Shown: positions 2,088 through 61,722 of the stretch, piece after piece
How positions within the stretch are numbered: the stretch's first letter is position 1
Layout: every line of letters begins with the position of its first letter
Origin: an uncultured Dehalococcoidia bacterium
GTDB taxonomy: Bacteria; Chloroflexota; Dehalococcoidia; Lucifugimonadales; CATQGZ01
Direction of reading: 5' to 3'
Length of the DNA: 64,000 bases
NCBI GenBank assembly: GCA_958295685.2
Contig: OY282365.1
Coordinates: forward strand, 395,395 to 459,394
Position numbers and translations under genes: made by a program
The notes under the pieces: model-generated
Seen by the model: only the letters and a program-made list of their open reading frames with translations
What the model was told of the DNA's origin: nothing
The model's database searches: none

Positions 2088-2120
2088 GCCGCTGGTGTCA
2101 TCAGCGCGTCCCAGATAGAC

Positions 2121-2218
2121 AACCGCCTCCCACGACGGGGACTCGTGAATCGCCCGCGCCTCCCATCCTCCCAATCCTGCTAATCCTCCAATCCTGAGAA
2201 TCCTGATTCAGACAACCC
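2121..2218 (+). repeat. Upstream module (one unit) with phased AATCCT hexamers, abutting the -35 of cassette A
   Basis: ...ACTCGTGAATCGCCCGCGCCTCCCATCCTCCCAATCCTGCTAATCCTCCAATCCTGAGAATCCTGATTCAGACAA. Same module as 15753-16058 (3 units, minus sense) and 61197-61399 (2 units). Confidence 0.7.
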
Positions 2219-2445
2219 TTGACGACGCCGAACCGCTGTGCTAGAGTATCCCCATGACACAGCCGCCTCTCTCCACAAACCAGCCCGCACGACTCCTGAA
2301 GCACCTGTCACAAAAGTGTCGCATAAGTGTCGCATAGTGTCGCATGAGTGTCGCAAAAGCGTCGCATAGGTGTCGCATAGTGTCGGCCAAAATCGCACCT
2401 CCCAGCTACGAAATACCCGAAAATGCGACACTTTCGGCAAAAATT
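2219..2445 (+). ncRNA. Candidate promoter-linked structured leader/ncRNA cassette, copy A
   Basis: -35 TTGACG 2219-2224, 17-nt spacer, -10 TAGAGT 2242-2247. Conserved block CATGACACAGCC. Tandem 10-11-nt words GTGTCGCATAA from 2316 to 2386. Conserved loop AAAATCGCACCTCCCAGCTACGAAAT. Inverted word CGACAC 2426-2431, then TTTCGGCAAAAA. Co-oriented with the DUF1501 gene at 2604. Confidence 0.5.
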
Positions 2446-8628: not shown

Positions 8629-9849
8629 CTATTCTTCCTGTTCCTGCTCATCCCAGGATACGAGGTGCCCGGTCTCTTCGGCCTTGCGCCGCACGGCGTG
8701 GTAGACCTCGTCGAGGGGCAGACCCTTATCCAGCGCGATGCGGCGGCATGACTCGTACTCGGGGGCCACGCTGACGGCTCGTCCTCCGATCCTCTTGATC
8801 TTGACTTGGGCTCTGCCCAGCGCGGTGTCGACCTCGACGACTTCGCGCTCGGCTTCGTACCTGGCGATGGGCCGCACCCTGACTCCAAGGGTGGATGACT
8901 CGCGCATGATGAGGTCGACGGCGCGAGTTTCCAGGTCGGACGGGACGATGACGCTGATCATGATGCCGGGTCGGTTCTTCTTCATCTGTATAGGCGTGAA
9001 CCAGACGTCCCGGGCTCCTATCTCGAACAGGCGCTCGTGCAGATAGCCCAGCAGATTCCCGCCCATGTCGTCCACGTTGGTTTCGAGCAGGGTGTTGCCG
9101 GTCACGAATGGCGCGCCGGTCTCTTCGCCGACCCACAGCGCGAGGGCGTTCGGGTAGTGGCGCGACTCACGGCTGCCAAGCCCGTAGCCGATGCGTTCCA
9201 GGATGAGGCCGGGCCGGTGGAAGGCTGCCAGGGTGGTGATGATGGCCGCCCCCGTGGGAGTTACCATTTCGCCGGTCTCGGCGGCGTTGGCGTGGGCGGG
9301 CGCCACCGGCGCGCGCGCCATTGCCATGAGGGCGGTCGTCGCGGGCGTCGGGACCGGAAGCGGGCCGTGTTCGCTCATGACAATCCCGCCGCCGGCCGGC
9401 AGGGCTGAGGAGTAGACGCGTTCTACCCTGAGCAGTTCCAGACCTGCCACGCTGCCGACCACGTCGACTATGGTGTCCAGGCTGCCGAGTTCATGGAGCC
9501 TGGCGTCTTCGGCGGTGGTTCCGTGCGCGGCGGCCTCTGCCTCGGCGAGCCGGCGCAGAATCGCGCGGGAGCGCCCGGCAACCGCAGGCTCTAGGGATGA
9601 GCGGCCGATCATCGTGTCGAAGTCGCGCCAGCTCAGTCCTCGCGGGGCGCCTTCGCACAGTTCGACGGAGACCAGGGTTCCGTCGACCCCTCCTCGCCGC
9701 GCGCGGCTTGGCGCGAGACTGAACCCCTCGACGTCCAGCTTTCGAAGCTCTCGCTCCAGGTCGGAGACCGTTACGCCGGCGTCGATGATCGAGCCGAGGA
9801 TCATGTCCCCGCTCGCGCCGCCTATACACTGGAAGTAGGCGCTCCGCAG
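8629..9849 (-). CDS. larC: LarC-like nickel insertion protein (DUF111 family)
   Basis: The track ORF starts at MILGSIIDAG, but the conserved N-terminus AYFQCIGGASGDM continues in frame upstream. The only plausible start is CTG at 9849, 8 nt after a GGAGG and 1 nt after the radA stop. Confidence 0.75.
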   Translation of the reverse strand: MRSAYFQCIGGASGDMILGSIIDAGVTVSDLERELRKLDVEGFSLAPSRARRGGVDGTLVSVELCEGAPRGLSWRDFDTMIGRSSLEPAVAGRSRAILRRLAEAEAAAHGTTAEDARLHELGSLDTIVDVVGSVAGLELLRVERVYSSALPAGGGIVMSEHGPLPVPTPATTALMAMARAPVAPAHANAAETGEMVTPTGAAIITTLAAFHRPGLILERIGYGLGSRESRHYPNALALWVGEETGAPFVTGNTLLETNVDDMGGNLLGYLHERLFEIGARDVWFTPIQMKKNRPGIMISVIVPSDLETRAVDLIMRESSTLGVRVRPIARYEAEREVVEVDTALGRAQVKIKRIGGRAVSVAPEYESCRRIALDKGLPLDEVYHAVRRKAEETGHLVSWDEQEQEE

Positions 9850-15334: not shown

Positions 15335-15457
15335 CCCCCTGGCAGTGACCTATTTTCCCACTCCGTCGCCAGAGCAGTATCGTCAGCGCTGAGACGTTTC
15401 ACTACCGTGTTCGGAATGGGAACGGGTGGGCCCGCCTCGCCAAGACCACCAGGGGGG
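15335..15457 (-). rRNA. rrf: 5S ribosomal RNA, not linked to 16S/23S in this window
   Basis: Minus-sense CCCCCUGGUGGUCUUGGCGAGGCGGGCCCACCCGUUCCCAUUCCGAACACGGUAGUGAAACGUCUCAGCGCUGACGAUACUGCUCUGGCGACGGAGUGGGAAAAUAGGUCACUGCCAGGGGG. It aligns along its length with E. coli 5S (CCGAAC...GUGAAAC...GGGAA..CUGCCAGG), and helix I closes the ends. Confidence 0.95.
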
Positions 15458-15515: not shown

Positions 15516-15544
15516 AATATATCCGCCTGGGGTCTGGCTGTCAA
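15516..15544 (-). promoter_or_regulatory. Proximal promoter (P2) of the 5S rRNA gene
   Basis: Minus-sense TTGACA (15544-15539), 17-nt spacer, TATATT (15521-15516), about 60 nt upstream of the 5S 5' end. Confidence 0.6.
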
Positions 15545-15560
15545 CAGCCGCCGCAGGTGA

Positions 15561-15753
15561 TTTTTTTGCCGGAAGTGTCAGATTTTCGGGCATTTCGTAG
15601 CTGAGAGGGCCGATTTTGGCTGACACTATCTGACACTCGTCTGACACTTATCTGACACTATCTGACAGTCGCTTCGGGAGTCTTGCGGGCTGATTGTGGA
15701 GAGAGGCGGCTGTGTCATGGGCATACTCTAGCACAGCGGTTCGGTGGTGTCAA
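15561..15753 (-). ncRNA. Candidate promoter-linked structured leader/ncRNA cassette, copy B (distal promoter P1 of 5S rRNA)
   Basis: Minus-sense TTGACA (15753-15748), 17-nt spacer, TAGAGT (15730-15725). CATGACACAGCC block, tandem words GTGTCAGATAA, loop AAAATCGGCCCTCTCAGCTACGAAAT, inverted word CTGACAC (plus-strand 15575-15581), then TTCCGGCAAAAAAA. Confidence 0.5.
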
Positions 15754-16058
15754 TTGTCTGAATCAGGATTCTCAGGATTGGAGGATTAGCAGGATTGGGA
15801 GGCGCGGGCGATTCAGGGGTGCCCCTACACGTTGGGACGGCTGTCGGTCACGGGGGATTGTCTGAATCAGGATTCTCAGGATTGGAGGATTAGCAGGATT
15901 GGGAGGCGCGGGCGATTCAGGAGTGCCCCTACACGTTGGGGCGGCTGTCGGTCACGGGGGATTGTCTGAATCAGGATTTGCAGGATTAGGGGATTAGCAG
16001 GATTGGGAGGCGCGGGCGATTCAGGGGCGCCCCTACACGTTGGGGCGGCTGTCGATCT
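15753..16058 (-). repeat. Three tandem 104-bp upstream modules with phased AATCCT (AGGATT) hexamers
   Basis: Units start at 15753, 15857 and 15961. Each carries ATTGTCTGAATCAGGATTCTCAGGATTGGAGGATTAGCAGGATTGGGAGGCGCGGGCGATTCAGG.GTGCCCCTACACGTTGGGGCGGCTGTCGGTCACGGGGG. Confidence 0.85.
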
Positions 16059-16147
16059 GGGGCGCGCTGATGACATCATAATGGCGCGGAGAGGCTGAAC
16101 GACGGACGCGGTTGACCCTCCGGGAACGCTGTTGCTACACTCGCGTC

Positions 16148-19587: not shown

Positions 19588-20382
19588 CTACAACAGCCTC
19601 TCGGTTGCATCACGTCCCACATCTACTAGTCTTGCGTTTGCCGCCTCGACAAAAGCCTTGTCTTTCTCGATTCCTATGAAGCGTCTCCCCAATCTTCGAC
19701 ATACGACTGGACATGTGCCGACACCTGCAAATGGGTCGAGAACCAAGTCTCTTTCGACTGAGCTTGCCTTCACTAGCCGCTCAATGAGCTTTTCCGGTTT
19801 CTGGATAGTGTTGAGGGCTTCTCTGCTGGCTAATTCCTTCGACTTGTATGTTAGTTGCTTTATGTCTCCCCAGACGTCTCCTGGGTTCTTCCCTCTTTCG
19901 TTGAACTTAGTTTTGCCGAACCTTCCGTTCACAACAGACGGCACTCGCTCGCATCGCAGCCTGTGCTCCAGTTCGACAAGCTGGTCTACTCGAATCGCGT
20001 CGAGGTTGAACGTCTTGGGTCTCTTTCCTTTGACGAAATAGCATATCACGTCGTAGTTGTTGGTGTAGTTGATTCTCCCTTGAGCCAGACGGCTCGGTTG
20101 AAACCAGATGATCCTGGAACAGAGTTTGAGGAAAGGGCGATAGTCGATGAAGTCGATGCAGTCAGATTTTCCGAACATATACAGGGCCGCGCCATCCTTC
20201 ATCTTGGCAGCGAATATCTCTATCAACTTCAGATTGAATGCCTGTATATCGTCGATCTTATCCCACTTGTTAGTCGTTACTCCGTACGGCCCGTCGCAAA
20301 TTATGAGATCGATTGACTCGTCATCGATTTCAGGGAGTAGATCGAACGCGTCGGCATGGTAGATCCTATTGACAGCGAGCAC
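19588..20382 (-). CDS. Type II DNA methyltransferase, beta-class (N4-cytosine/N6-adenine)
   Basis: 264 aa; motif IV DLIICDGPYGV is N-terminal and motif I VLDPFAGVGT is C-terminal. Low-GC codon usage. Confidence 0.85.
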   Translation of the reverse strand: MLAVNRIYHADAFDLLPEIDDESIDLIICDGPYGVTTNKWDKIDDIQAFNLKLIEIFAAKMKDGAALYMFGKSDCIDFIDYRPFLKLCSRIIWFQPSRLAQGRINYTNNYDVICYFVKGKRPKTFNLDAIRVDQLVELEHRLRCERVPSVVNGRFGKTKFNERGKNPGDVWGDIKQLTYKSKELASREALNTIQKPEKLIERLVKASSVERDLVLDPFAGVGTCPVVCRRLGRRFIGIEKDKAFVEAANARLVDVGRDATERLL

Positions 20383-33330: not shown

Positions 33331-33519
33331 TATGCTATGCTCCCGCAGTGTGGATTCGCCGCTCATGGTAGCCATCAACCCTGGGCATTGTCAATCTGCG
33401 AATCGATCCCCTGGGCCGCCGATACGCCGCTCTCATCACTGCCGCTCCCCAATCCCCATCCACGTCATTCCGGCGAAAAGCCTGCCTCCTGGATTCCGAC
33501 AGCCCCTGACGACCAGCCC

Positions 33520-33747
33520 TTGACGGCACCGAACCGCTGTGCTAGAGTATACCCATGACACAGCCAACCCATCTCCCACGACCAGCCCGCAGGACTCCTG
33601 AAGCGCCTGTCACAAAAGTGTCACAAAGTGTCACAAAAGTGTCAGATAAGTGTCACAAAAGTGTCAGATGAGTGTCACATAGTGTCAGGCAAAATCGGCC
33701 CTCTCAGCTACGAAATGCCCTTAAAATGTGACACTTCGGCAAAAAAA
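33520..33747 (+). ncRNA. Candidate promoter-linked structured leader/ncRNA cassette, copy C
   Basis: TTGACG 33520-33525, 17-nt spacer, TAGAGT 33543-33548. CATGACACAGCC block, tandem words GTGTCACAAAA / GTGTCAGATAA, loop AAAATCGGCCCTCTCAGCTACGAAAT, inverted word TGACAC, then TTCGGCAAAAAAA. Co-oriented with the methyltransfer cluster starting at 33946. Confidence 0.5.
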
Positions 33748-33945
33748 TCTCCCGCAGCGGGCCGAGACGCCGCTTCGCCGAGACTGCCGGACGCAGCAGA
33801 AGTCGTCGACTCACAGGCGCGGGATTCCGCCCGGCTTTCACCCCGCGCCGTGATGCTGTATCTTGGGGGTACGGCTCTGTTGACGGGGCCGCTTGTGGGC
33901 GGCGACCCATGGGCCGGGAGGATGCGATTGGCAAGGGTGAGGATC

Positions 33946-35195: not shown

Positions 35196-35870
35196 ATGAC
35201 GGAGAAGACCGATGCCCCAAGGGTGACCGACGTGATCGAGCGCTACGGCAGATGCTTGGAGCTCGTCCCGATCGACCCGACCTTCCATGACGCAAGCGTC
35301 GGGCTGTACGTCAAGGACGGCGCATGCACCGTGTGGACCTTCAGCCGGAAACCCGGCGTGGGGGAGCGCATGGAGCAGATCAGGGACCGCCTCGTGAGCC
35401 TCGGCGGAATGACCCCGATCGAAGACAACGGCAACCAGGCCCGGTTCCCCTGCGGCCTCCTGCACGTCAGACCGGTCAGATTCCTCATGGCTCAGGCGGT
35501 CGGCAAGGCCAGGGAGTACGCCACCCCCAGCGGCGACATGTCCATCAAGGACTCCAAGACCGACCTTGTTCTCAGCCTGTCGGGCAGAGGAGAGGGCGGC
35601 AGGTGGCTCTATGACGTCGCCGCGGAGGGCGAGGCAGCCAACCCCGCCATGCGGCTGCGGATGGTGGTGGCGGGCTTCCTGCGCTACGGAGAGATGGAGA
35701 AGGCGGGCGACGCCTCGGTAACGTTCCCGTGCGGTCAGCGGCACGACGAACTCATGCGCCTGCTCCTCCCTTACTCCCGAAACGTCAGCGCCGTAGAGAG
35801 CATGATGGAAGCAGAGGCCCTCCGCGGCCAGATGACCACCAGCACCCTAGGCTTCACCCCGCCGACGTAG
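35196..35870 (+). CDS. Hypothetical protein with internally repeated FPCG motif
   Basis: 224 aa with no recognised family. QARFPCGLLHVRPVRFLM and SVTFPCGQRHDELMRLLL suggest a two-fold internal repeat. Confidence 0.5.
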   Translation: MTEKTDAPRVTDVIERYGRCLELVPIDPTFHDASVGLYVKDGACTVWTFSRKPGVGERMEQIRDRLVSLGGMTPIEDNGNQARFPCGLLHVRPVRFLMAQAVGKAREYATPSGDMSIKDSKTDLVLSLSGRGEGGRWLYDVAAEGEAANPAMRLRMVVAGFLRYGEMEKAGDASVTFPCGQRHDELMRLLLPYSRNVSAVESMMEAEALRGQMTTSTLGFTPPT

Positions 35871-35884
35871 GGGAGGGGAGAGCG

Positions 35885-36562
35885 ATGACGCAGACAGGCG
35901 GAAGCGTGCCCGCCGCATCCAGGGAGAGCGGCGCTCGCGGCAACCCGGCCGCAGCGCCGGATGAGGACGCCGTCTTCGCCGGAACCGACGTGCCTGTCAA
36001 GAGCCTCTTCGACTCCCTCGAAACGCAGCACAACCTGAACGTCTTCCTGCACCTCTTTCCGTCGGTGAGCCGGAAGCAGGCGCTGGACGCGATGGAGAAG
36101 CAGGCGCGCGCTCACGTGGGCCGTGTAGTCCACAGCCGCGGGGATGCCGTGAGCGGTATGCCCGTCTTCAAGGATACCCGTGTGCCCGTGAGGAACCTCT
36201 TTGATTACCTGGCGAAGGGATACGGCCTCGACGTTTTTCTGTGCGAATTCCCGTCGGTGAGCCGTGAACAGGCAGTGAGGGCGCTCACGATGGCGAGGCA
36301 GATTCTGGAGAAAGACTCGTATGGAACAGCGGCGGACGGTGACAGTGTCATTCACAGCGACCCCCAAGTCATGAGCGGTATGCCCGTATTCAAAGGAACC
36401 CGCCTGCCTGCTAAGAACCTCTTCGACTATCTGGCCGGAGGAGACAACCTCCACGTCTTCCTGGAACATTTCCCGTCGGCGAACCGTCGGGAGCAGGCGT
36501 TGGACGCGCTCAGCGAGGCGGGGGAGAGCCTGGAGACCTGCGTCCATGAGGCTGTTGCTTGA
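35885..36562 (+). CDS. Triple tandem DUF433 domain protein (antitoxin-like)
   Basis: ATG 35885 after GGGGAGGGGAG. Three DUF433-like units: FAGTDVPVKSLFDSLETQHNLNVFLHLFPSVSRKQA, MPVFKDTRVPVRNLFDYLAKGYGLDVFLCEFPSVSREQA, MPVFKGTRLPAKNLFDYLAGGDNLHVFLEHFPSANRREQA. Confidence 0.7.
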   Translation: MTQTGGSVPAASRESGARGNPAAAPDEDAVFAGTDVPVKSLFDSLETQHNLNVFLHLFPSVSRKQALDAMEKQARAHVGRVVHSRGDAVSGMPVFKDTRVPVRNLFDYLAKGYGLDVFLCEFPSVSREQAVRALTMARQILEKDSYGTAADGDSVIHSDPQVMSGMPVFKGTRLPAKNLFDYLAGGDNLHVFLEHFPSANRREQALDALSEAGESLETCVHEAVA

Positions 36563-36722
36563 TCAGGGAATCCCATACCAGCAGCGCATAGCCGGAGAGG
36601 ACGTGGGAATCATCGTGCTATCCGCAATTACGAACCGTATGAGAGACCTGGAGCCTCTGGTTCCACGGGTATTGGAAGCCCTGCGGGACTTGAAGCGCGG
36701 GCAGGTCATTCACGTCAGATAG
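36546..36722 (+). pseudogene. Internally deleted DUF5615/PIN-like toxin remnant
   Basis: 58-codon ORF (below the track cutoff) overlapping the DUF433 gene by 17 nt. MRLLLDQGIP... matches the DUF5615 N-terminus and ...GIIVLS...GQVIHV its C-terminus; about 55 central residues are missing. Confidence 0.45.
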
Positions 36723-36740
36723 AGAGAAGGACGGTCAGCA

Positions 36741-37463
36741 GTGACGCAGCCGCAAGGGCTAGAGACTTTGTTCCGGGCCAATAAGCGCGTAGTGCGCAAT
36801 GGCTCTGCGACGAATGACCTCGTGCTGAGCGCCCACGTGGATGGGAACGAGAGCGTGTTCCCGAAGATACTGGATCTCTACGTGAGGCCGGGGAGTGTCG
36901 TGGCCGACGTGACCTATGGCAAGGGCGTGTTCTGGCGGGGTGTGCCCGCCGGCCGGTACACCCTACGCGCCACGGATATTCAGAACGGTGTGGATTGCCG
37001 GAACCTCCCCTACGCTGATGGAGAGGTCGATTGCGTCGTCCTTGACCCTCCATACATGCACTCGCCCGGAGGAACTGCGCACCGTGAGCATGAGCCATTT
37101 GAGGAGTACTACGTCAATAACAGGTCGGGCGGACAGACCAAGAGCAAATACCATGAAGCCGTCCTTGATCTGTACAGGGATGCAGGGAGGGAGGCATACC
37201 GCGTCTTGCGGGAGCGTGGTGTCTTCATTGTGAAGTGCCAGGATGAAGTATGCGCGAACCGGCAACGCTTCACGCATGTCGAAATCATGCTCGATTTTGA
37301 TAAGACAGGCTTCGTTGCGGAGGACCTCTTCGTGGTGGTGAGGAACAACCGACCTGGCGTCAGTCGTGTGGTGAGGCAGGTCCACGCACGGAAAAACCAT
37401 TCGTACTTCCTTGTCTTCTGGAAACAAGGAAAGAACGGTAATGTATGGGAACCGCCGCGGTGA
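36741..37463 (+). CDS. Small DNA methyltransferase (DPPY motif, N6-adenine/N4-cytosine)
   Basis: GTG 36741. Motif I-like VADVTYGKGVFW, then motif IV CVVLDPPYMHSPGG, then HSYFLVFWK. GC is lower than the flanks. Confidence 0.75.
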   Translation: MTQPQGLETLFRANKRVVRNGSATNDLVLSAHVDGNESVFPKILDLYVRPGSVVADVTYGKGVFWRGVPAGRYTLRATDIQNGVDCRNLPYADGEVDCVVLDPPYMHSPGGTAHREHEPFEEYYVNNRSGGQTKSKYHEAVLDLYRDAGREAYRVLRERGVFIVKCQDEVCANRQRFTHVEIMLDFDKTGFVAEDLFVVVRNNRPGVSRVVRQVHARKNHSYFLVFWKQGKNGNVWEPPR

Positions 37464-37960
37464 ATCCCATTGATCTGATGGTGCAGGTCATTAATGAACA
37501 TTCGCCCAGATCGATCTGGACGGGTTCTCCGCTGGAAGGTTATCGCCGACTTGGGAACACAAACCGGGGACAGATTGGAGAGGAGTTCATTCGCAAATAT
37601 CTGGCAGGAGCGGGAATCCTGGTCGGCAACGGGTCTCGCGTAACGCCAACGGACATGCTGGTCGCCGGGAAACAGCTTGAGATAAAGACAGCCTCGTTGG
37701 GAACGAATGGGACATTCCAGTTTAACCATATCAGATTGGATAGGACATACGACTACCTCCTATGTCTGGGTATATGTCCCGACAGAATCACGTTTGTCGC
37801 GTGGCGCAAGGGTGTGATTGCGGAGGGAGGGGCCGGATCTCTTGTGCGTATGGCGGAAGGACAGAGTACTACTCATAAGATCACCAAGAAACTAACGGAC
37901 ATGGAGCCTATAGAGGAGCTTCCAAGTTGGGTTCGCAAGCAAGTCATCGGTGAGCAGTGA
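37445..37960 (+). CDS. PD-(D/E)XK restriction endonuclease candidate
   Basis: 171 aa overlapping the methyltransferase by 19 nt. Core TPTDMLVAGKQLEIKTAS (D...ExK). Confidence 0.5.
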   Translation: MGTAAVNPIDLMVQVINEHSPRSIWTGSPLEGYRRLGNTNRGQIGEEFIRKYLAGAGILVGNGSRVTPTDMLVAGKQLEIKTASLGTNGTFQFNHIRLDRTYDYLLCLGICPDRITFVAWRKGVIAEGGAGSLVRMAEGQSTTHKITKKLTDMEPIEELPSWVRKQVIGEQ

Positions 37961-38988
37961 CGATGGCGCAAGAACTGGCGAGGATTGAGAGAGTGGACAT
38001 CCGGGAAGTCTGGCCGTATGAGGCCGCCAACTTCACCCCTTGGCTCGCGGAGCACCTATCGGAGCTTGGGGAGGCCCTGGGTCTGGATCTCGAGCTGCTG
38101 TCCCGGGAAGCGCCGGTCGGCGGCTTTTCGCTGGACATCCTGGCGCGTGACGTAGTACGGGGCTATCCGGTGGTCATCGAGAATCAGCTGGAGGCTACCG
38201 ACCACACCCACCTGGGCCAGCTCCTCACCTATGCCGCAGGTTATGACGCCAACGTGGTTGTCTGGATCGCCCGGGAGTTCAGCGACGAGCACAGGGAGGC
38301 CCTGGATCTGCTCAATCGGCGTACTGACGAAAAGAGCGAGTTCTTTGGCGTGGTCGTCGAGGTGTGGAAGATCGGCGACTCCCGCCCCGCCCCGCACTTC
38401 AGGGTCGTATCCGCTCCTAACGACTGGCGGAAGCAGAACGTCAGGCCGGCGCTAACTGGGAAGGGTGAACGCTACCGCAAGTTCTTTCAGGCGCTTGTCG
38501 ACGTCCTGAGAGAGAACCATAGGTTCACTGACGGGCGTAAAGGCAGCCCTCAACTCAGCTCGCGTCATTGGATCGATCTAAATTGGTGCTTCTTCCATTC
38601 AGGCTACGGCGGTGTTGGATACAATCTCAGTTTTCCTAGAGGAAACAAGGCCAGAGTCGAGCTATATGTCGGTACAGGCGACAAAGCCTTCAACAAGCAT
38701 CTGTTCGACTCTCTGAAGGAGGCCCGTGAAGGGATCGAATCCGAGATTGAGGGCAGCCTCGAGTGGGAGCGGCTGGATGATCAAAAGGACAGCCGCATAT
38801 CGGCCGTGCGCCAGGGCTCCATATATGACCCCCCTGAGACGCTGGAAGAGATACGCGGCTGGATGGTTGAAAGGCTTCTGGCGTTCAAGCAGACCTTCGG
38901 CCCGAGGCTGGACGAGTCGATTAGGATAGCAGAGCATCGAGCAGAGGAGGGCAGCCATGCCGCTTCAGGAGACGATGACCCCTCGTGA
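37957..38988 (+). CDS. DUF4268-like protein with N-terminal PD-(D/E)XK nuclease-like domain
   Basis: GTGA start/stop overlap with the upstream gene. N-terminus EVWPYEAANFTPWLAEHLSELG...FSLDILARD...VVIENQLEATDHTHLGQLLTYAAG is typical of this defence-island-associated family. Confidence 0.6.
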   Translation: MTMAQELARIERVDIREVWPYEAANFTPWLAEHLSELGEALGLDLELLSREAPVGGFSLDILARDVVRGYPVVIENQLEATDHTHLGQLLTYAAGYDANVVVWIAREFSDEHREALDLLNRRTDEKSEFFGVVVEVWKIGDSRPAPHFRVVSAPNDWRKQNVRPALTGKGERYRKFFQALVDVLRENHRFTDGRKGSPQLSSRHWIDLNWCFFHSGYGGVGYNLSFPRGNKARVELYVGTGDKAFNKHLFDSLKEAREGIESEIEGSLEWERLDDQKDSRISAVRQGSIYDPPETLEEIRGWMVERLLAFKQTFGPRLDESIRIAEHRAEEGSHAASGDDDPS

Positions 38989-45539: not shown

Positions 45540-45772
45540 GACGCGGTTTCTCCCCGGTCTCCCATCGGTTATAATATCAAAGTCAGAGAGGGACTCACCG
45601 GGTTAGTTGCGGTTTCTCCCCGATCTCCCATCGGTTATAATTCCTTCAAGCACATCAGAACGCGCCAGAGGTTGCGGTTTCTCCCCGATCTCCCATCGGT
45701 TATAATTCATCGTCGCGCCCATCCAGGCCATCATGAGTTGCGGTTTCTCCCCGATCTCCCGTCGGTTATGAC
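45540..45772 (+). CRISPR. Type II-C-like CRISPR array, 4 repeats / 3 spacers
   Basis: 36-bp repeat GTTGCGGTTTCTCCCCGATCTCCCATCGGTTATAAT at 45606 and 45671. Variants at 45540 (5' end degenerate) and 45737 (3' end degenerate). Spacers of 30, 29 and 30 bp. The sense strand is inferred from tracrRNA complementarity. Confidence 0.9.
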
Positions 45773-48700
45773 GCCAAAGGCCCCGGGTCCAGCACCCGCC
45801 CGATCTCGTTCACCTTCACCTTGCGGAAGCCCTGACTCTGGAGCTGCCGGTCGCTGTACTGGCTCGCCTTCATCTCCTTCTTCCTCACGCGGGCATCGAC
45901 GTTGGCCTCGGTGTGGTCGTCCAGCGCCACGAAGGTACCGTTCTTGGCGTTCGTAATCTTCCGGACCCGCACTATGCGGCGGTCCGGCCCTTCACCAAAC
46001 GCGCCCATGTCGTCGATCTGAAGCCTCATGATTCGCTTCGCCACGGGGTCGCGCCTTCCCGGCTTGTCCTTGGGGCGGAACTGCTCGATGTCGAAACCGG
46101 GCTGATTGGCGTCGAAGGCGGGAACGACGACCATCCTCCAACTCCCGTCGCGCATCCGCCACACGTCGGCGAACTCGTTTCCCCCGGGAAGGTAGCCCTT
46201 GTATGGCCTTCCGTCGCGGTCCCTGACTGGTATGACACTCTGGTTGTCGACGACGCGCACGCGCCGCACAGGGCGGGGGCGCCCGCCCATCGTCACGCCC
46301 CTGTTTGCCGCCCGGTCGGCGAATCTCGCGGTGACCTTGGAGACCGAGCCGCCCTCGGATTCCGCCTCGTCCCACAACTCCAGCAGCGCCGCTCTCAGCG
46401 CCTGGTCTCGCACCGATTTTATGTCGGCACGCTTCTTGAAGTCGGACAGATTCTTGCGAGTCACGACCCTGGACGGGCCGTCTTCCGAATGCTCGATCAG
46501 CCCGTAGGCCGTCTCGTTGTGCAGCTGCCCTGTAGTCTTGCCCTTCTCGCCGCGCGTTCCATGGTCTGGCTTATGGGAGACCACCAGTCTGTCGAGGAAG
46601 GGCTTCAACTGGCTGCGGTTAAAACCGTCCCACGGACGTGCCTCCCCAGCGACCGCGGCCAGTCTCTCCTCTGCTTCGGCGCGGTCGGACCCGGCGGCGT
46701 GCGCGAATCGCTGGAGCAGCCCCTGGGTGGTGTTCGCCACGACGAATGCGTCGATGGCGTGGTGGCGGTGGTCGTCGCGCTGCTTGCCCACGATTTTGCC
46801 GGCCTCGTTCACAGGCAGCATCTCCTCCAGCCTCCATCCCCGCCTGAGCAGCGCCGTCATCTGGCCCGGTATGACACGCACCCGCTTCTTGCCCTCGCTC
46901 CTCTCGTCGTACAGGTGGGCCAGATATGCGCGGGCCGTGCGGGACAGGTAGCGCGTCTCGTTGAGCTGCCGATCCAGGAAGTGGCGCTCGCCCTTGAAGC
47001 GGTCCATGGCGTCCTCATCGAATCTCCAGCGCTTGTTGCCAGGCAGCCTGAAGGCGCGGGACAGGATGGCGTCGTAGTCGTAACCGTCCTGTCCATGTCC
47101 GAACGCCTCGTGTGGAGACCGGTTGCCCTTGCCACGGTTGGCGCTGGATACGCACACGACCTTGTTCGCCATCGAGTTATCCAAAGTACGGGAGAACGGG
47201 AGGATGTGGTCGATCTCGGTTGCGTCCGACACCGCCATCTCGAATGAGAGAACTCTGCCGGTGTAGGGACAGTGGCGCCCCTGCTCCTCCCATAGGCGGA
47301 GCTTCCCGAGCGCGTCGGCTGTGATGGGTCTTTCCGCCGACTCCAGCATCTCCTTGAAGCGCTCGTTGCGCTTCCCACCCTCCCGCTGCTGTCGTTCGTA
47401 ATTCTGCTTCTGCTCCCTGTTCCTCTTCAGGTCACGCCCCAGCTCCACCACGACATCTTCCGGCCTGCCGTACGCATCGATGAGCCGGTTGACGACGCGC
47501 CGCAGCTGGTTCAGGCCAATATGGACGGTGGGGTTGGGGAACCGGCCGTAGCGGGCGGCCTCGCCGTCCTTCTCGGAGTCTTTCGTCGGGTCGGTCCCGA
47601 CCGTGGCCTGGGTGAGCACCTTGCCGTAGTAGGGCAGCCGCTCGTGGGCCTCCGCGCTGCGGAAGTCGGAGTGATGGGAGTATCCCGCGGCTTTGACGGC
47701 GTCCGAATAGACACGGCCCTTCTCCAGGTGCGGAAGCAGCTTGCGGATGGCCTTTTCGCTCAGGTTCCCGTAGCCGTCCGGGAGCGCGGCGTGGGCGACG
47801 ACTTCGGCCTGCGCGGCGTCCAGTCCCCAATCATCCAGGGCCTTCTGCCGGACGACCTCCGGGTCCTCCGTATCGAGCATGAACTGCACGATTCCGTTCC
47901 GCTCGTCGAGGGGAAGATCGAGCCAGCGGTCGCCGAACAGCGTCAGTTCCTTCTCGCCCTTCCTCCTCTTTCCCTTTATGAGACGGGCGGCGGTCTTGTC
48001 TCCATCGATCTTCTTGCGCCCGCCCGCGGCCAGGTTGAACGTGGCCCCCGAGGGGATTCCGAGATCCCGCGTGGGCTTGACGGCTCTGTTGTCCTTGCCC
48101 TCGCGTAGCTTGATGTCCTTACCCGCCCGCAGCCGTTTCAGCGCGCGCTCCCGCTCGCGTTCGTCCAGCGCGCGCTCAGGCCCGAAGCTGACCCGGAGTC
48201 TCAGGTTGTTGACCTCCTGGAGCATGCGGAACTCCTGCGCCACCGGCAACGCCTTTGCTGCCCGGCACTCTCCCTCCTCCAGCTGGCACCATCCCGGATC
48301 GACGTGCTTCAGGGGCCGCTGGAAGAAGATGATGTGGTCTCGCAGGGTGTCCCACCGCTCCTCGATCAGGCTGTGGTGAGGCTCCTGTGCCTCCCGGATC
48401 TTGTCGAACTCGTCCTCGTACATTGCCCTGTCAGGGTAGAGATCCAGACCCTGCCGGGCGCGGACGGATTCGCCCTTCTCACGCCGCGGCGCCAGGAACT
48501 CACCCAGCGTCCGCGCCCCGCTCTCTTCGATACGGTTGTGCAGCGCGCTTATCATGGCGAGCGTTTTCTTGGCCTCGCTCTCGTCGTCGGTGACTGTCTT
48601 GCGGTTCGACTTGAAGCCGCGCCGCTGGTTCAGATGGAACAGCGCCCGGCCCAGTTCGTAGGGTTCGAGCGGGTGATCGAGCGCACGCGCCCGGAGCGCA

Positions 48701-49017
48701 TACGGGTCGAGGCGTTCGAGGGCCTTGCGCTCTCTTTCATCAGGCGGCATGAGGCCGAGCTCGACGAGGGCCTGCATCAGATCGCCGCGACGCTTCAGAT
48801 AGCGGTCACGGCGGCGGCGAGCTCCACGAGCGACGCGACGGTCGGCGGCGTTGGAAGTCCCCGATTGCCGGTTGCGTCCGTCAGGGAAGATGCGGACGCC
48901 CATGTCCAGCGTCCCGCAGGGCTCACCGTCCTCGTTCAGGAGGACCGCGGCCCAGCCGACGGAGTTGGTCCCGAGGTCGAGTCCAAGCCGGTACTTCCTG
49001 CCGTCTTCAGTCGTCAT
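45766..49017 (-). CDS. cas9: CRISPR-associated endonuclease Cas9 (type II-C size class)
   Basis: 1083 aa. RuvC-I YRLGLDLGTNSVGWA; Arg-rich bridge helix RRVARGARRRRDRYLKRR; RuvC-II VVVELGRDL; HNH EIDHILPFSRTLDNSMANKVVC...NRGKGNRSP; RuvC-III HHAIDAFV. All catalytic residues are present. Confidence 0.95.
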   Translation of the reverse strand: MTTEDGRKYRLGLDLGTNSVGWAAVLLNEDGEPCGTLDMGVRIFPDGRNRQSGTSNAADRRVARGARRRRDRYLKRRGDLMQALVELGLMPPDERERKALERLDPYALRARALDHPLEPYELGRALFHLNQRRGFKSNRKTVTDDESEAKKTLAMISALHNRIEESGARTLGEFLAPRREKGESVRARQGLDLYPDRAMYEDEFDKIREAQEPHHSLIEERWDTLRDHIIFFQRPLKHVDPGWCQLEEGECRAAKALPVAQEFRMLQEVNNLRLRVSFGPERALDERERERALKRLRAGKDIKLREGKDNRAVKPTRDLGIPSGATFNLAAGGRKKIDGDKTAARLIKGKRRKGEKELTLFGDRWLDLPLDERNGIVQFMLDTEDPEVVRQKALDDWGLDAAQAEVVAHAALPDGYGNLSEKAIRKLLPHLEKGRVYSDAVKAAGYSHHSDFRSAEAHERLPYYGKVLTQATVGTDPTKDSEKDGEAARYGRFPNPTVHIGLNQLRRVVNRLIDAYGRPEDVVVELGRDLKRNREQKQNYERQQREGGKRNERFKEMLESAERPITADALGKLRLWEEQGRHCPYTGRVLSFEMAVSDATEIDHILPFSRTLDNSMANKVVCVSSANRGKGNRSPHEAFGHGQDGYDYDAILSRAFRLPGNKRWRFDEDAMDRFKGERHFLDRQLNETRYLSRTARAYLAHLYDERSEGKKRVRVIPGQMTALLRRGWRLEEMLPVNEAGKIVGKQRDDHRHHAIDAFVVANTTQGLLQRFAHAAGSDRAEAEERLAAVAGEARPWDGFNRSQLKPFLDRLVVSHKPDHGTRGEKGKTTGQLHNETAYGLIEHSEDGPSRVVTRKNLSDFKKRADIKSVRDQALRAALLELWDEAESEGGSVSKVTARFADRAANRGVTMGGRPRPVRRVRVVDNQSVIPVRDRDGRPYKGYLPGGNEFADVWRMRDGSWRMVVVPAFDANQPGFDIEQFRPKDKPGRRDPVAKRIMRLQIDDMGAFGEGPDRRIVRVRKITNAKNGTFVALDDHTEANVDARVRKKEMKASQYSDRQLQSQGFRKVKVNEIGRVLDPGPLAS

Positions 49018-49100
49018 GGAATCCCCTCTCGCCCTCGCCGTAGCTGTTCAGAGTTGATGAGGTCTCCCTATCCGCAAGCGCAGGGCGGTCGCGGCCTGTG

Positions 49101-49312
49101 GTTTTGCCGAAAACTGTCCCAAACTGTTCCATTTTGTCCCATCTCGTAGCTGAGGGGTTCGATTTCGTGGAACAAATGTGGGGCACTTGTGGAACGGATG
49201 TGGAACGGAACCGGAGCAGTTCCGGTACAATTGTGGAACAGGGTCTTCAGGGCTGCTGCTGGGTGTGCTGCTTCCATGTGAATAATATAGTACAGGGGTT
49301 CGCCGCCGTCAA
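49101..49312 (-). ncRNA. Candidate promoter-linked structured leader cassette, divergent copy E, reading into cas9
   Basis: Minus-sense TTGACG (49312-49307), 17-nt spacer, TATATT (49289-49284). 5' block CATGGAAGCAGC, CCTGAAGACCCTGT, 11-nt words CCGTTCCACAT, loop GAAATCGAACCCCTCAGCTACGAGAT, inverted word TGGAACA (plus-strand 49125-49131), then TTTTCGGCAAAAC. Ends about 85 nt before the cas9 ATG. Confidence 0.45.
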
Positions 49313-49428
49313 GGGGACTTCCCCTTCGGACCTCACAGAGTCTGAACAGTTACGCCCTCGCTGATTGGATTTGCGCAGAGATTCGGGACGGTGGTACAAT
49401 TCCTTCCGCCAAGGCTCCGTCAACGTAG

Positions 49429-49515
49429 ATTATAATCGATTGGGAGATCGGGGAGTCTCCGTTAACAAGCCTTGCACAAAATCGGAGGACGGGCTACGTG
49501 CCCGTCCTCTCCCCC
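49429..49515 (+). ncRNA. tracrRNA candidate
   Basis: ATTATAATCGATTGGGAGATCGGGGAGTCTCCGTTAAC can pair along almost the whole repeat. It is followed by AAGCCTTGCACAAAATC and an 11-bp hairpin GGAGGACGGGC-TACGT-GCCCGTCCTCT. It carries its own TATAAT at 49431-49436. Confidence 0.7.
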
Positions 49516-49626
49516 ATTCTTGAGGCCGCGCCCGTTCGTCTCCCGAGGCTCGGGAATCCTGATTCAGGCAATCTGCCGCCTACCCAGGCCCCCTCAGGTC
49601 CTCCGTGGTTCTGGTACACTCTGCGC

Positions 49627-50010: not shown

Positions 50011-51651
50011 CTAGTCGTCGGGACCGAAGAGCTCATCCGTCTCGCGCTCGACCTGGGCCCTCAACTCCGCGGCGTCTCTGAAGCCCAGCTCCCTGTACGA
50101 CTCCGCGGAGCCGTATTCCCGCGTCTCGATGACGACGGGCATCGGCACGGCGTGCCCGAAGACGAGCGCCTGGCGCTTGGACTCCAGCCTCGCGAGCACG
50201 GAGCGCAGCCGCCGGCTGCCGGACACGCCGGTCATCACCGCGTCGAGGTCCTTCTCGTTGTCGAGCAGGCACGTGAGCTTGGTGCCCAGCTGACTCATCA
50301 CCTCGTCGTCGATCCCGCTGGGCCGCTGGTCCACGACGAGCAGTGTGACGTTGTACTTGCGCATCTCGCGGGCGATGGCGCCGAAGGTGGTCTGCGAGGC
50401 AACGCCCGGATTGAGGAACTTGTGGGCCTCTTCGATGGTGATCACCAGCGGCCTGGGCTTCCTGGCCTCGTCTCCCATCGCCTCCTCGGACTCTCTCTGG
50501 TAGCGCTCGTAGATGCGGCGGGTGAGGAGATTGGCGACCAGCACGTAGGCGGCCGTGTCGCTCCCGTAGCGCCCGAACTCGAGGACGACGTGCATCCCCC
50601 TGTCGAGGTACTGGAGGATGCGTCCAACGGAGTCGTGGCCCGAGCCCTTGTCCATGAACTTGAGTCGCTTGAGCCTGGACAGGCGGTTCTTCAGCGTGCT
50701 GAGCGCCCTCTCGTTGACGCTGAGGGCGCCGGCGAGGTCCCTGAAGGCGTCCCCCGTCGGGTGCTCCAGAAAGTGGGCGAGCCACGACTTCCCGAAGTGG
50801 CGCTGCAACGAATACGCCGCGTCGGCGGCCACGTCGGAGAGGCTGAGGCTCTCCCTGAGGAGCTGCACGTCCTCCGGCTCCACCTCGTCGAGACCTACAC
50901 GGACTACATAGTCGGGGGTGAGCCCGCGACGGCGCGAACTCTCCTCGTCGAGCGAGAAGACGGCGACCCTGGACGGGAAGAGCTGCTTCAGTCCCTTCAC
51001 CTCGCGCGAATCCTCGCTGTAGCCCTTCCAGCCGTACTCGCTCTGCATGTCGAAGACGAGGTTGCTGGCTGCCCCGCTCTGAAGGATGCCGGCGAGCAGG
51101 AGCCTGGTGAGAAAGGTCTTGCCGGTGCCGCTCTTGCCGAAGACGCCGTTGCTGCGCATCACGAACTCCGGCACGTCCAGGCAGAGCCGTGTCTCCATGT
51201 CGAGAGGGCTGCCTATCCAGAAGTGGCGCTCGTCCTCCTCGCCGAAGACGAGCCGCACGTCGTCCTCGGAGGCGAGGTGGACAGGGGAGAAGTGGGGCGG
51301 GATGGTCTTCGCGGGCTGAGGCCCCTCTACCAACGCCAGCGGGTCGTTGCTCAGCGCCAGCACGGGCTCCACGTCCAGGGCGCCGAAGGCCGCGGTTCCG
51401 AGGAGCGCCTCCGCGATGAACGGGTCTGATACGTCAGGCGGCGCGGCGCTCATGTAGGCGTCCGAGGTCTCCAGGGAGACGTTGCTGACGACGGCGAAGA
51501 ACCGCAACAGCTTCCCGCGCGCCGTAACGTACCTGCCCACCCTGACGTCCTCGACGTTGACGCCGCGGTCGAGACGCACCCTGAGCCCGTCGGTCAGGGA
51601 ACCCTTGACCACCACGCCGAGACGTCCTTCCTGGCCTGGAGAGTCGTTCAT
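50011..51651 (-). CDS. HerA-like (DUF87, FtsK-HerA superfamily) ATPase
   Basis: ATG 51651 overlaps the upstream stop (ATGA). N-terminal HAS-barrel-like LGVVVKGSLTDGLRVRL...RFFAVVSNV. Walker A GKSGTGKT, Walker B LVITIEEAHKF, and VVDQRPS. Confidence 0.8.
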   Translation of the reverse strand: MNDSPGQEGRLGVVVKGSLTDGLRVRLDRGVNVEDVRVGRYVTARGKLLRFFAVVSNVSLETSDAYMSAAPPDVSDPFIAEALLGTAAFGALDVEPVLALSNDPLALVEGPQPAKTIPPHFSPVHLASEDDVRLVFGEEDERHFWIGSPLDMETRLCLDVPEFVMRSNGVFGKSGTGKTFLTRLLLAGILQSGAASNLVFDMQSEYGWKGYSEDSREVKGLKQLFPSRVAVFSLDEESSRRRGLTPDYVVRVGLDEVEPEDVQLLRESLSLSDVAADAAYSLQRHFGKSWLAHFLEHPTGDAFRDLAGALSVNERALSTLKNRLSRLKRLKFMDKGSGHDSVGRILQYLDRGMHVVLEFGRYGSDTAAYVLVANLLTRRIYERYQRESEEAMGDEARKPRPLVITIEEAHKFLNPGVASQTTFGAIAREMRKYNVTLLVVDQRPSGIDDEVMSQLGTKLTCLLDNEKDLDAVMTGVSGSRRLRSVLARLESKRQALVFGHAVPMPVVIETREYGSAESYRELGFRDAAELRAQVERETDELFGPDD

Positions 51652-52274
51652 GGAGACAGCCTCCTCAGGATACCGCTCAGGCGCAGCGTGTCCCGGCCGA
51701 GGAGGACGGCCAGCTCGCGGCCCGCTTCGACCAGGAACCCGTGAGGATCCGGATGGCACAGGCTGGCCTGCCTGACGAAGGAGGCGGCCACGTCGTCGGG
51801 AGAGGGAACGGGCGCGGAGAGGAGAATCGTGAGGAAGTCGAGAGACGACGTGAAGGCCTGTGACTCGTCGGCGCCGCAGGAGTAGACGAATGCGTGTATC
51901 CTGGGCGGCCTCGGAGCGAGGAAGCGCATGGTCTCGCCGTCGAGCGCGTGGCCGACTACCAGGGCGCGGAACTCCGTTCGCAGGAGACGGCTCAGCTGGG
52001 GATTGTTGCGGTAGATGTCCTCCTCCGTATCCTCGTCGCGGCCGCGCGCAATCGGGCGCCTGCCCGGGTCTATGCTGGTGGTCGCAACCTCGCCGACGAC
52101 GCCGTAGACGGGGCCCTCCGCGCCGCATCGGACGAGGGCTCCGAGCGGAGGCGCCCCATAGAGCTCGTAGCAGTGGACCATGAAGTGGTCGGTCGATGCC
52201 TCGACCACTTCACCGAGGCGGTCGGGCCGTTGTTTCGGGTTGGCCGTCTCTTCCATAGCGTGCCTCACAGCCAT
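51648..52274 (-). CDS. Hypothetical protein with HAS-barrel-like N-terminus (start 52274 or 52256)
   Basis: About 208 aa. LGEVVEASTDHFMVHCYELYGAPPLGALVRCGAEGPVYGVVGEVAT parallels the barrel of the downstream ATPase. Sandwiched between NurA-like and HerA-like genes. Confidence 0.5.
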   Translation of the reverse strand: MAVRHAMEETANPKQRPDRLGEVVEASTDHFMVHCYELYGAPPLGALVRCGAEGPVYGVVGEVATTSIDPGRRPIARGRDEDTEEDIYRNNPQLSRLLRTEFRALVVGHALDGETMRFLAPRPPRIHAFVYSCGADESQAFTSSLDFLTILLSAPVPSPDDVAASFVRQASLCHPDPHGFLVEAGRELAVLLGRDTLRLSGILRRLSP

Positions 52275-53479: not shown

Positions 53480-53480
53480 T

Positions 53481-59718: not shown

Positions 59719-59900
59719 TCTGAGGAGCCCTCTCCATTCCCCACTGACCACTGACCACTCGCCACTGACCACTGTTCCCCCCCTCTGGCAAGGGGTCTGA
59801 GGAGCCCTCTCCATTCCCCACTGACCACTGACCACTCGCCACTGACCACTGTCCCCCCCTCTGGCCGGGGGTCTGGGGGCTTGCCCCCAGTTTCCAATGG
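59719..59900. repeat. 76-77-bp tandem repeat (about 2.4 units) containing a CCACTGA heptamer run
   Basis: Units start at 59719, 59796 and 59872. Each holds CCACTGACCACTGACCACTCGCCACTGACCACTG, then CCCCTCTGGC.GGGGTCTG. The last ends with hairpin GGGGGCTTGCCCCC. Confidence 0.85.
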
Positions 59901-60983: not shown

Positions 60984-61196
60984 CGGGTGGGTGGGGAAAC
61001 CAGCCGTCTGCTTTATCAGGACTGCGCTGATCGAAAGACTTCATCAACTCTGAACAGTTACCTCCGGCGCGTCGCCGTCGGCGCCTCGTCGACGCTGACG
61101 TACACGGCTTCCGGCGAGCGCTGAGAATACCCGTCAGTAGAGAATCGCGTGCAGGGGGACTCGGTTCCAGACCGGCGGCTCCCTCTCGCTGCCGCC

Positions 61197-61399
61197 AGCC
61201 GCCCCAACGTGTAGGGGCACTCGTGAATCGCCCGCGCCTCCTATCCTGCTAATCCTCCAATCCTGAGAATCCTGATTCAGACAATCTCCCCTCCCCCGTG
61301 ACATCGCCAACCGCCCCAACGTGTAGGGGCACTCGTGAATCGCCCGCGCCTCCTATCCTGCTAATCCTCCAATCCTGAGAATCCTGATTCAGACAATCC
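61197..61399 (+). repeat. Two tandem 112-bp upstream modules with phased AATCCT hexamers, abutting cassette D
   Basis: GCCCCAACGTGTAGGGGCACTCGTGAATCGCCCGCGCCTCCTATCCTGCTAATCCTCCAATCCTGAGAATCCTGATTCAGACAAT at 61201 and 61313. Confidence 0.85.
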
Positions 61400-61635
61400 T
61401 TGACACCACCGAACCGCTGTGCTAGAGTTTCCCCATGACACAGCCGCCTCTCTCCACAAACCCGCCCGCAGGACTCCTGAAGCGCCTGTCGCAAAGTGTC
61501 GCATAAGTGTCGCAAAGTGTCGCATAAGTGTCGCATAAGCGTCGCATAAGCGTCGCATAAGTGTCGCAAAGTGTCGGGTAAAATCGCACCTCCCAGCTAC
61601 GAAATGCCCTCAAATCCGACACTTTCGGCAAAAAT
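61400..61635 (+). ncRNA. Candidate promoter-linked structured leader/ncRNA cassette, copy D
   Basis: TTGACA 61400-61405, 17-nt spacer, TAGAGT 61423-61428. CATGACACAGCC block, eight tandem words GTGTCGCA(T/A)AA, loop AAAATCGCACCTCCCAGCTACGAAAT, inverted word CCGACAC, then TTTCGGCAAAAA. Confidence 0.5.
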
Positions 61636-61722
61636 TCCCGGATCCGCCGTTCCCCAGAGGCCGCCGGCGCTGGGACCGGAGCGTAGCCCCAACGAGGTGA
61701 GGATTTGGCTGAGTCCGCGCCC

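Follow-up and report, generated by a model that had tools for sequence, protein, structure and literature searches.

A candidate mobile repeat that carries a promoter and a structured leader in an uncultured Dehalococcoidia bacterium

Five homologous cassettes, here called A to E, lie in intergenic positions within a stretch of 64,000 nucleotides (nt) from an uncultured Dehalococcoidia bacterium (GenBank assembly GCA_958295685.2, contig OY282365.1, positions 395,395 to 459,394; this whole 64-kb stretch is referred to as the window). Each cassette combines a promoter-like site, a tandem array of short sequence words and a single inverted copy of the word, the anti-word. The explanation that we favor, and to which we give about an even chance, is that the cassette is a mobile promoter-donating repeat whose transcript forms a hairpin leader by pairing of word with anti-word. 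The description of the element as roughly 230-550 base pairs (bp) in size, dispersed, intergenic and lineage-restricted is part of the same explanation and shares its evenly balanced prospects. Judged from the database searches, the family looks like a set of small intergenic repeats private to one deep-branching Chloroflexota lineage.

An initial annotation of the window had described a five-copy family, and all five copies are found at the places and on the strands it gave. The degenerate promoter pattern TTGACNNCNNCGAACCNCTGTNCTA has 5 matches in the window (0.01 expected) and the loop pattern AAATCGNNCCNCNCAGCTACGANATG also has 5 (0 expected); both match exactly the five cassette sites and nowhere else. 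The annotation had also proposed a covariance model. When built on the 3' half of the cassette and run over the whole window with filters off, the model returns only the five cassettes, at 78-110 bits, and the next match scores 12 bits.

The common layout begins with TTGACR, exactly 17 nt, TAGAGT (TATATT in E), 6 nt and a conserved ATG. Next comes a 5' block with CCTGAAG..CCTGT at its end, which leads into the word array, and the 3' part consists of the core AAATCG-NN-CCNCNCAGCTACGANAT, one inverted word and TTYCGGCAAAA. The arrays hold 5-9 words each (the annotation had counted 4 to 8) with a period of 10-11 nt. The annotated 5' block is indeed shared, but in B it reads CTCCCGAAGCGACTGTC, and the anti-word it contains is only 5-6 nt long. 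Cassette E is the divergent copy and retains the architecture at only ~60% identity to A-D; within the cassette, conservation is strongest in the promoter and in the loop. The features of the five cassettes are as follows, with the strand being that of the cassette unless a hairpin is described as facing the other way.

2094..2218, plus strand: upstream unit of A; left end TGTCATCAGCGCG common to B, with AATCCT sub-repeats and GAATCCTGATTCAGACAA (blastn, motif search)
2219..2247, plus strand: promoter-like site of A; TTGACG, 17 nt, TAGAGT, with TGn before the -10 element
2254-2256, plus strand: conserved ATG of A, 6 nt past the -10 element
2305..2388, plus strand: word array of A; 8 words, core GTGTCGC
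2390..2414, plus strand: loop core of A, AAATCGCACCTCCCAGCTACGAAAT
2423..2443, plus strand: anti-word of A, ATGCGACAC, then TTTCGGCAAAAA
2444..2477, minus strand: GC hairpin of A, followed by a T-run on the minus strand; looks like an antisense intrinsic terminator
15527..16078, minus strand: cassette B, whole; three upstream units at 15753-16064, left end near 16073
15725-15753, minus strand: promoter of B
15716-15718, minus strand: ATG of B
15618-15668, minus strand: word array of B
15592-15616, minus strand: loop core of B
15575-15583, minus strand: anti-word of B
15561-15574, minus strand: tail of B
15527-15560, cassette on minus strand: reverse hairpin of B
33400..33781, plus strand: cassette C, whole; one degenerate upstream unit from about 33400
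33520-33548, plus strand: promoter of C
33555-33557, plus strand: ATG of C
33607-33690, plus strand: word array of C
33692-33716, plus strand: loop core of C
33726-33734, plus strand: anti-word of C
33735-33747, plus strand: tail of C
33748-33781, cassette on plus strand: reverse hairpin of C
61193..61668, plus strand: cassette D, whole; two upstream units at 61193-61398
61400-61428, plus strand: promoter of D
61435-61437, plus strand: ATG of D
61486-61579, plus strand: word array of D
61581-61605, plus strand: loop core of D
61614-61622, plus strand: anti-word of D
61623-61634, plus strand: tail of D
61635-61668, cassette on plus strand: reverse hairpin of D
49068..49312, minus strand: cassette E, whole, the divergent copy
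49284-49312, minus strand: promoter of E (TATATT)
49275-49277, minus strand: ATG of E
49167-49241, minus strand: word array of E; 7 words of 11 nt, core GTTCCAC
49141-49165, minus strand: loop core of E
49124-49131, minus strand: anti-word of E
49102-49113, minus strand: tail of E
49068-49101, cassette on minus strand: reverse hairpin of E
49032..49361, minus strand: transposable element of the miniature inverted-repeat type (MITE) carrying E; 26-nt inverted ends at 49039-49064 and 49329-49354
49032-49038 and 49355-49361: the 7-bp direct repeat GCGAGGG around the MITE with E

A sixth copy, P0121, was recovered elsewhere on the 2.5-Mb source contig with the translated sense frame of the cassette. 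Back-translated by analogy with B and C, its GTCAGAT word would again pair with ATCTGACAC. The antisense frame, used as a protein query in the same way, returned no further copy.

Tandem Repeats Finder (TRF) reports arrays of period 10-11 in A-D and only a short 2-copy stretch in E (49188-49209); the register of seven words with a period of 11 in E comes from manual parsing, not from TRF. The parsed periods are 11, 11, 10, 11, 11, 11, 10 in A; 10, 11, 11, 10 in B; 11, 10, 11, 11, 11, 11, 10 in C; 10, 11, 10, 11, 11, 11, 11, 10 in D; and six steps of 11 in E. In each of A-D, the inverted word and one word of the same array form a perfect inverted repeat of 10-12 nt, and in E 8/9 positions match. 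Set against its own array, each anti-word reaches a best complementarity, from A to E in order, of 9, 9, 9, 8 (9 when G.U is allowed) and 8 of 9 positions; across E and A-D the value is 6/9. Minimum-free-energy folds of A-D include the word:anti-word helix, and 89% of cells are paired in the two long-range helices of the MAFFT alignment. Changes on both sides occur in 6 of the 13 pairs, against 1.9 +/- 1.1 in shuffled controls (none of the 500 reaches 6) and at most 2 in slid controls. We treat this covariation as suggestive only, because it is drawn from five related sequences (plus the inferred sixth) and the structure tested was derived from them. Some G.U pairs are valid on the sense strand only, namely in the last word of D, the penultimate word of A and the GGGAC copies of E, and these hint at a sense RNA.

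The spacing between the -35 and -10 elements is exactly 17 nt in 5/5 cassettes, and TGn precedes the -10 element in A-D. All five sites score 9-10 out of 12 against the sigma-70-type consensus, where shuffled sequences yield 0.1-0.3 such sites per region; this supports the prediction of a near-consensus sigma-70-type promoter in each cassette. In every copy, exactly 6 nt separate the -10 element from the ATG, a position that fits a transcript starting at AUG.

All five cassettes point the same way as the next gene, as the annotation had claimed. The downstream genes are a DUF1501 gene for A, 5S ribosomal RNA (rRNA) and rpsA for B, a homocysteine methyltransferase-like gene for C, a radical SAM gene for D and cas9 for E. 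For C and E, the promoter scan finds no other promoter-like site before the gene. At the B locus, an 11/12 match to the promoter consensus lies between the cassette and the 5S rRNA gene. The order 5S rRNA, rpsA, clpC, radA is kept in two relatives, both of which have the 5S promoter TTGACA-17-TATAAT a few bases past the upstream gene and no cassette. Because the proximal 5S promoter is conserved in relatives that lack the cassette, cassette B reads as an addition at this locus and not as the 5S promoter. The 5S rRNA gene itself stands alone with its own promoter directly upstream of rpsA (window 15337-15453; 9607-9723 in relative L016 and 9592-9708 in relative L017), with no 23S rRNA nearby, and this arrangement is conserved in the two relatives.

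The element extends beyond the limits first annotated, which are too small. Comparison of the five regions with blastn shows a left end, TGTCATCAGCGCG, common to A and B, and a right end common to A and D about 35 nt past the A-run; A runs from about 2094 to 2477 and includes a conserved GC hairpin after the A-run. Upstream of the promoter are units of 104-112 nt (one at A, two at D and three at B) containing AATCCT sub-repeats and the near-palindrome GAATCCTGATTC. These units look like diverged duplicates of the cassette promoter and 5' half (compare, for example, GTGACATCGCCAACCGCCCCAACGTGTAGGGGCACTCGTGA with TTGACACCACCGAACCGCTGTGCTAGAGTTTCCCCATGA), a reading made directly by eye and with no statistical test. 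A sequence otherwise seen in the cassette upstream units, GAATCCTGATTCAGGCAA, also occurs at window positions 49554-49571, ~55 nt before the likely ATG of a Zincin_1 gene (49628), and may be a shared regulator site; that ATG itself lies 6 nt after a TGn-TACACT element resembling a -10.

Evidence for movement comes from E, from B and from the sixth copy elsewhere on the source contig. Cassette E is bracketed by a 26-nt inverted repeat, 81% complementary, with ends GTAACTGTTCAGAG, and the 7-bp direct repeat GCGAGGG abuts both ends; by its sequence, E is cargo of a MITE. A sister MITE at 60825-61061 (60817-61069 with flanks) shares these ends and comes with an 8-bp duplication, CTCCGGCG, and its interior consists of GC hairpin modules with no cassette. 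The two MITEs agree over 40 nt at the left end and about 30 nt at the right end, and their interiors are unrelated; therefore two different vehicles carry the module from the -35 element to the hairpin. Among the cassettes, only E was found with inverted ends and a target duplication: none were found for A-D, and the window contains no transposase gene. Cassette B is absent from the same locus in the two relatives. Taken with the MITE and its target duplication around E, this strengthens the portability that the annotation had proposed. The MITE with E sits 21 nt before the start codon of cas9.

On the opposite strand, all five cassettes have a GC hairpin (-18.7 to -24.6 kcal/mol) that ends 1-2 nt before a run of T4-T7; among random 50-mers taken from the window, only 12.7% reach this standard. 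A strict terminator scan finds the opposite-strand element in A and C only. The hairpin sequences of B, C and E are unrelated, and it is the structure that is conserved, not the sequence. In sequence terms the hairpin and T-run look like an intrinsic terminator facing the cassette. The terminator scan found no sense-strand terminator after any of the five cassettes, and no antisense promoter was found for the reverse terminator to serve. Some insertion sequences carry insulation against incoming transcription, and the reverse terminator may have the same role here. The opposite-strand hairpin with its T-run, the MITE and the probable derivation of the upstream units had not been part of the initial annotation.

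Searches beyond the five cassettes agree with a family of narrow distribution. The annotation had recognized no named RNA family in the element and had named a match to a known Rfam or MITE family as a result that would speak against it. With Rfam release 15, only 5S rRNA reaches the gathering threshold in the whole window, and scans of A, C and E at E <= 10 return noise only; the sole connection to a MITE is that E alone sits within one. Among 185,579 GTDB species genomes, the loop pattern has 15 matches, by eye nearly all coding and several in one recurring frame, and none is a cassette. The same pattern has 8 matches in JGI metagenomes, by eye none with cassette features. IMG/VR scans with the loop, promoter and MITE-end patterns find none, and blastn against plasmids and phages gives nothing relevant. 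In 42 kb from the two relatives there is no cassette and no array with a 10-11-nt period. The best outside match of the ribosomal protein S1 encoded in the window has 77% identity, and the few named weaker matches are to Chloroflexota/Dehalococcoidia. In a metagenome-assembled genome of Dehalococcoidia (L015, 1753-1787) there is a non-coding-looking match to the loop core with CCCATGACA and TTTTTCG nearby; considered as a cassette, this look-alike is without a word array and scores 16 bits only, and it is probably a chance match.

Put together as a mechanism, the favored explanation would work as follows. A sigma-70-type promoter with AUG at the expected start would drive a non-coding 5' transcript with a structure of its own. 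Within the sense RNA, the anti-word would pair with one word over 9-12 bp, and this helix would close a conserved loop of ~34-40 nt with the core AAAUCG-NN-CCYCYCAGCUACGARAU, while the first nucleotides of the RNA could pair with another word. Transcription would run on into the next gene, and therefore the cassette would be an extra, distal promoter and leader; for C and E, it may supply the only promoter, being the only promoter-like site that the scan found upstream of the gene. The arrays would lengthen and shorten by slippage, and the opposite-strand hairpin with its T-run would block incoming antisense transcription. Spread would be by duplication and transposition, with one copy lying in a MITE and another absent at the same site in relatives.

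A number of observations weigh against this explanation. Apart from the small and related set of sequences, which supplied both the covariation and the structure, only two or three independent covariation events fall within A-D, the anti-word of A fits the array of D, the anti-word of B fits the array of C, and the 5' anti-word is short. The compensatory word/anti-word change that had been annotated is seen across the family as a whole, in 6/13 pairs, and the case for it is weaker within A-D and for the 5' anti-word. An RNA hairpin needs one word, not 5-9, yet both subfamilies have retained the array. The mean period of ~10.6 bp, together with the conserved 7-nt core and free 4-nt spacer of E, would be better explained by a protein bound along one DNA face. 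The spacer of the promoter, too, is conserved from E to A-D, and a plain promoter does not usually show this. Co-orientation with the next gene is weak evidence, with two of the sites in divergent intergenic regions and p = 1/8 for the other three, and A, B and D are each followed by a separate gene-proximal promoter-like site. A-D have neither inverted ends nor a target duplication to account for their movement. Finally, the promoter, the start site and the read-through are all predictions.

Multi-copy small RNAs (sRNAs) with C/U-rich loops include LhrC, the csRNAs, RsaE and the 'cuckoo' RNAs, and the alternative to which we give most weight, while still considering it unlikely, is that the cassette encodes a stand-alone, multi-copy sRNA acting in trans, whose CCYCYC loop tract would pair with purine-rich ribosome-binding sites and whose GC hairpin would be the 3' end. 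In A and D the tract reads CACCUCC, as does the 16S 3' end, and conservation peaks in the promoter and loop. When A-D are folded, the pyrimidine tract is predicted between the arms formed by word and anti-word, in some copies within a small inner 3-bp stem-loop; in E it is predicted to be partly paired. Every copy has a stable GC hairpin after its A-run, and downstream of three cassettes the gene has a separate promoter-like site, which one would expect if the cassette were an independent gene. However, the hairpin has no U-tract after it on the sense strand (the T-run being on the other strand) and the word array goes unexplained; the family is absent from relatives and therefore is not a conserved regulator. 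The array is what a DNA operator or iteron reading would explain: an oligomeric protein would bind the words, one per helical turn, along with the inverted word, and control the cassette promoter or the next one. Candidate proteins would be an OmpR/PhoB-type regulator, an MraZ-like protein or a ribbon-helix-helix protein of the ParR/omega kind. This reading comes next in weight and is also rather improbable. It suits the mixture of 10- and 11-nt periods with a mean near 10.6, the strict 11-nt register of E with its 7-nt core and free 4-nt spacers, the conserved promoter spacer and the retention of arrays in both subfamilies. The words also resemble known direct-repeat boxes, namely those of Pho (CTGTCATAAAACTGTCAT), of TorR (CTGTTCATAT) and of MraZ in Mollicutes (AAAGTGK); because the promoter geometry does not fit, this resemblance is kept only as part of this alternative. 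Of the marks of an OmpR/PhoB-type operator, the cassettes have the periodicity, but there is no -10 element at a Pho-type distance from the last word, no single recognition sequence and, by Pfam, no regulator gene in the window. The words differ between cassettes, the inverted copy changes with them at positions that one protein would fix or ignore, and the word of E is different altogether.

The remaining alternatives fare less well. A selfish repeat without host function, in which the hairpin serves propagation, the arrays are by-products of slippage and the promoter is incidental, strikes us as a poor prospect. Slippage has been recent, as periods of a higher order (21, 22 and 32 nt) show; the family does not extend beyond one lineage, other small repeats form a mosaic in the window, and the upstream units look like partial duplications. 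Such an element would not be expected to keep its architecture between E and A-D at ~60% identity, to be most conserved in the promoter and loop, or to preserve an opposite-strand terminator in structure and not in sequence. A single-stranded DNA hairpin element for an HUH nuclease, either like a rolling-circle origin, nicked in the loop and bound at the 11-bp repeats, or derived from IS200/IS605 elements without inverted ends, is very improbable. Its attraction is that the loop contains CTACGA, the core of the pMV158-family nick site TACTACG/AC, in an origin that has three ~11-bp repeats; A-D have no inverted ends or target duplications, and GC hairpins lie near both ends. That nick sequence was found in Lactococcus plasmids. 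The match extends over no more than a 6-mer, however; there is no similarity to plasmids or phages and no Rep or TnpA gene in the window, the cassettes are on both strands and follow gene direction rather than replication strand, and the loop is far larger than in known origins. A pMV158-type rolling-circle origin in particular, with the nick TACTACGAC in the loop, was rejected: only CTACGA and the broad layout are shared, with no Rep gene and no plasmid similarity. Least credible of all is a leaderless small protein gene starting at the conserved ATG. The ATG does lie 6 nt after the -10 element in all five copies, the frame of E is open for 69 codons, through IEPLSYEM, and two of the differences between E and A-D in the IEPLSYEM block are synonymous. 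In A-D, by contrast, the frame stops after 23-38 codons within the array; stop codons inside the arrays and 1-nt indels in B and C disrupt it, the frames of B, C and D differ, A has an in-frame stop, and words of 10-11 nt cannot maintain a reading frame. Pfam finds no family match to the cassette frames, and only one cassette-derived open reading frame (ORF) occurs among 5.8 billion protein clusters. The cassettes had been annotated as non-coding, with unconserved frames, and this is borne out; a short leaderless ORF whose sequence is irrelevant may nevertheless be present.

The promoter-donating repeat with a hairpin leader can also be given a stronger form, as a new class of mobile regulatory RNA gene. 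A hairpin whose register varies would arise from the slippage-prone array and its co-evolving anti-word, the length of the array would tune, or switch heritably and reversibly, the transcription or stability of the downstream gene, cas9 included, and the loop would dock a partner. We consider this extension doubtful and hold little expectation of it. Should the promoter prove active, the element rewires how unrelated genes, including cas9, are expressed in a poorly known Chloroflexota lineage, and a compact natural module of promoter and leader joins the few bacterial repeats that carry promoters. The matched word and anti-word would be a rare case of a minisatellite co-evolving with a distant partner. 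Even if inert, the element is a sign of a genome in which mosaic intergenic repeats are built at high density.

Several other features of the window were recorded. The cas9 gene downstream of E (1083 aa, 45766-49017, minus strand) belongs to a minimal type II CRISPR system, with no cas1 or cas2 among its neighbors by Pfam; an array of four 36-nt repeats (45540-45774) overlaps its 3' end, and an anti-repeat and hairpin resembling a trans-activating CRISPR RNA lie upstream of it on the plus strand (49430-49509). A separate N6/N4 DNA methylase and a HerA-NurA pair are found by the cas9 region (coordinates 19588-20382 and 50011-53566), and an XcyI-like restriction endonuclease (1059-2087) adjoins cassette A. 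The islet at 35729-38988, between the homocysteine methyltransferase-like gene and the URO-D/pterin-/B12-binding genes, encodes DUF433, a DNA methylase and DUF4268, and looks from its gene content like an inserted defense or modification block. Other intergenic repeats, at 59719-59875, 59851-59900 and 60931-60980, include a 77-nt tandem unit with CCACTGA heptads and the recurring hairpin module CCCCTCTGGC.GGGGGTCTGGGGGCTTGCCCCCAGTTTCCAA. A 42-nt tandem repeat present three times (56206-56336) lies in frame in a von Willebrand-A domain gene, with 14 codons per unit.

In comparison with known systems, the cassettes have the build of modular minisatellite repeats, with a conserved 5' module, a variable tandem array and a conserved 3' module in multiple intergenic copies; this term, which also covers BOX and BrickBuilt, denotes an architectural class and not a sequence family. 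The pneumococcal BOX element, boxA-boxB(n)-boxC, likewise has a conserved 5' module, variable tandem units and a conserved 3' module. Both are modular and intergenic, with a stable RNA structure predicted and effects on neighboring genes known for BOX, but boxB is 45 nt long, BOX has no built-in consensus promoter and the sequences are not related. Type III toxin-antitoxin RNA of the ToxI kind, where units of ~34-36 nt precede a toxin gene, was rejected as a candidate: the units here are 10-11 nt and the downstream genes are mutually unrelated. A double-strand origin of rolling-circle plasmids of the pMV158 family also combines a hairpin that has CTACGA in its loop with ~11-bp repeats, but the order of the parts differs, the loop here is ~34-40 nt, there is no Rep and no similarity, and the copies are chromosomal, five of them in 64 kb. 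BrickBuilt, a MITE with a minisatellite in Porphyromonas gingivalis (PMC4596501), resembles the cassettes in being species-restricted, intergenic and multi-copy, with a leader, an array, a tail and promoter elements. BrickBuilt has a 23-nt unit and small inverted ends, whereas the unit here is 10-11 nt with a covarying inverted copy and a conserved loop, inverted ends occur in E only and are those of a separate MITE, and the sequences are not similar. The Correia elements of Neisseria and other MITEs with promoters (PMC10969869) are small dispersed repeats that also bring sigma-70-type promoters before unrelated genes, fold in RNA and can alter transcript fate; Correia elements have their own inverted ends with a TA duplication and no tandem word array, while A-D are without inverted ends. 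Near-identical promoter regions before unrelated genes in one genome have been described as putative mobile promoters (PMC3575422), a descriptive class without defined structure, whereas here the promoter would travel with a structured transcript. Set beside these known promoter- or minisatellite-bearing repeats, with which it has no sequence in common, the cassette as predicted is distinguished by its co-evolving word and anti-word, its conserved loop and its reverse terminator.

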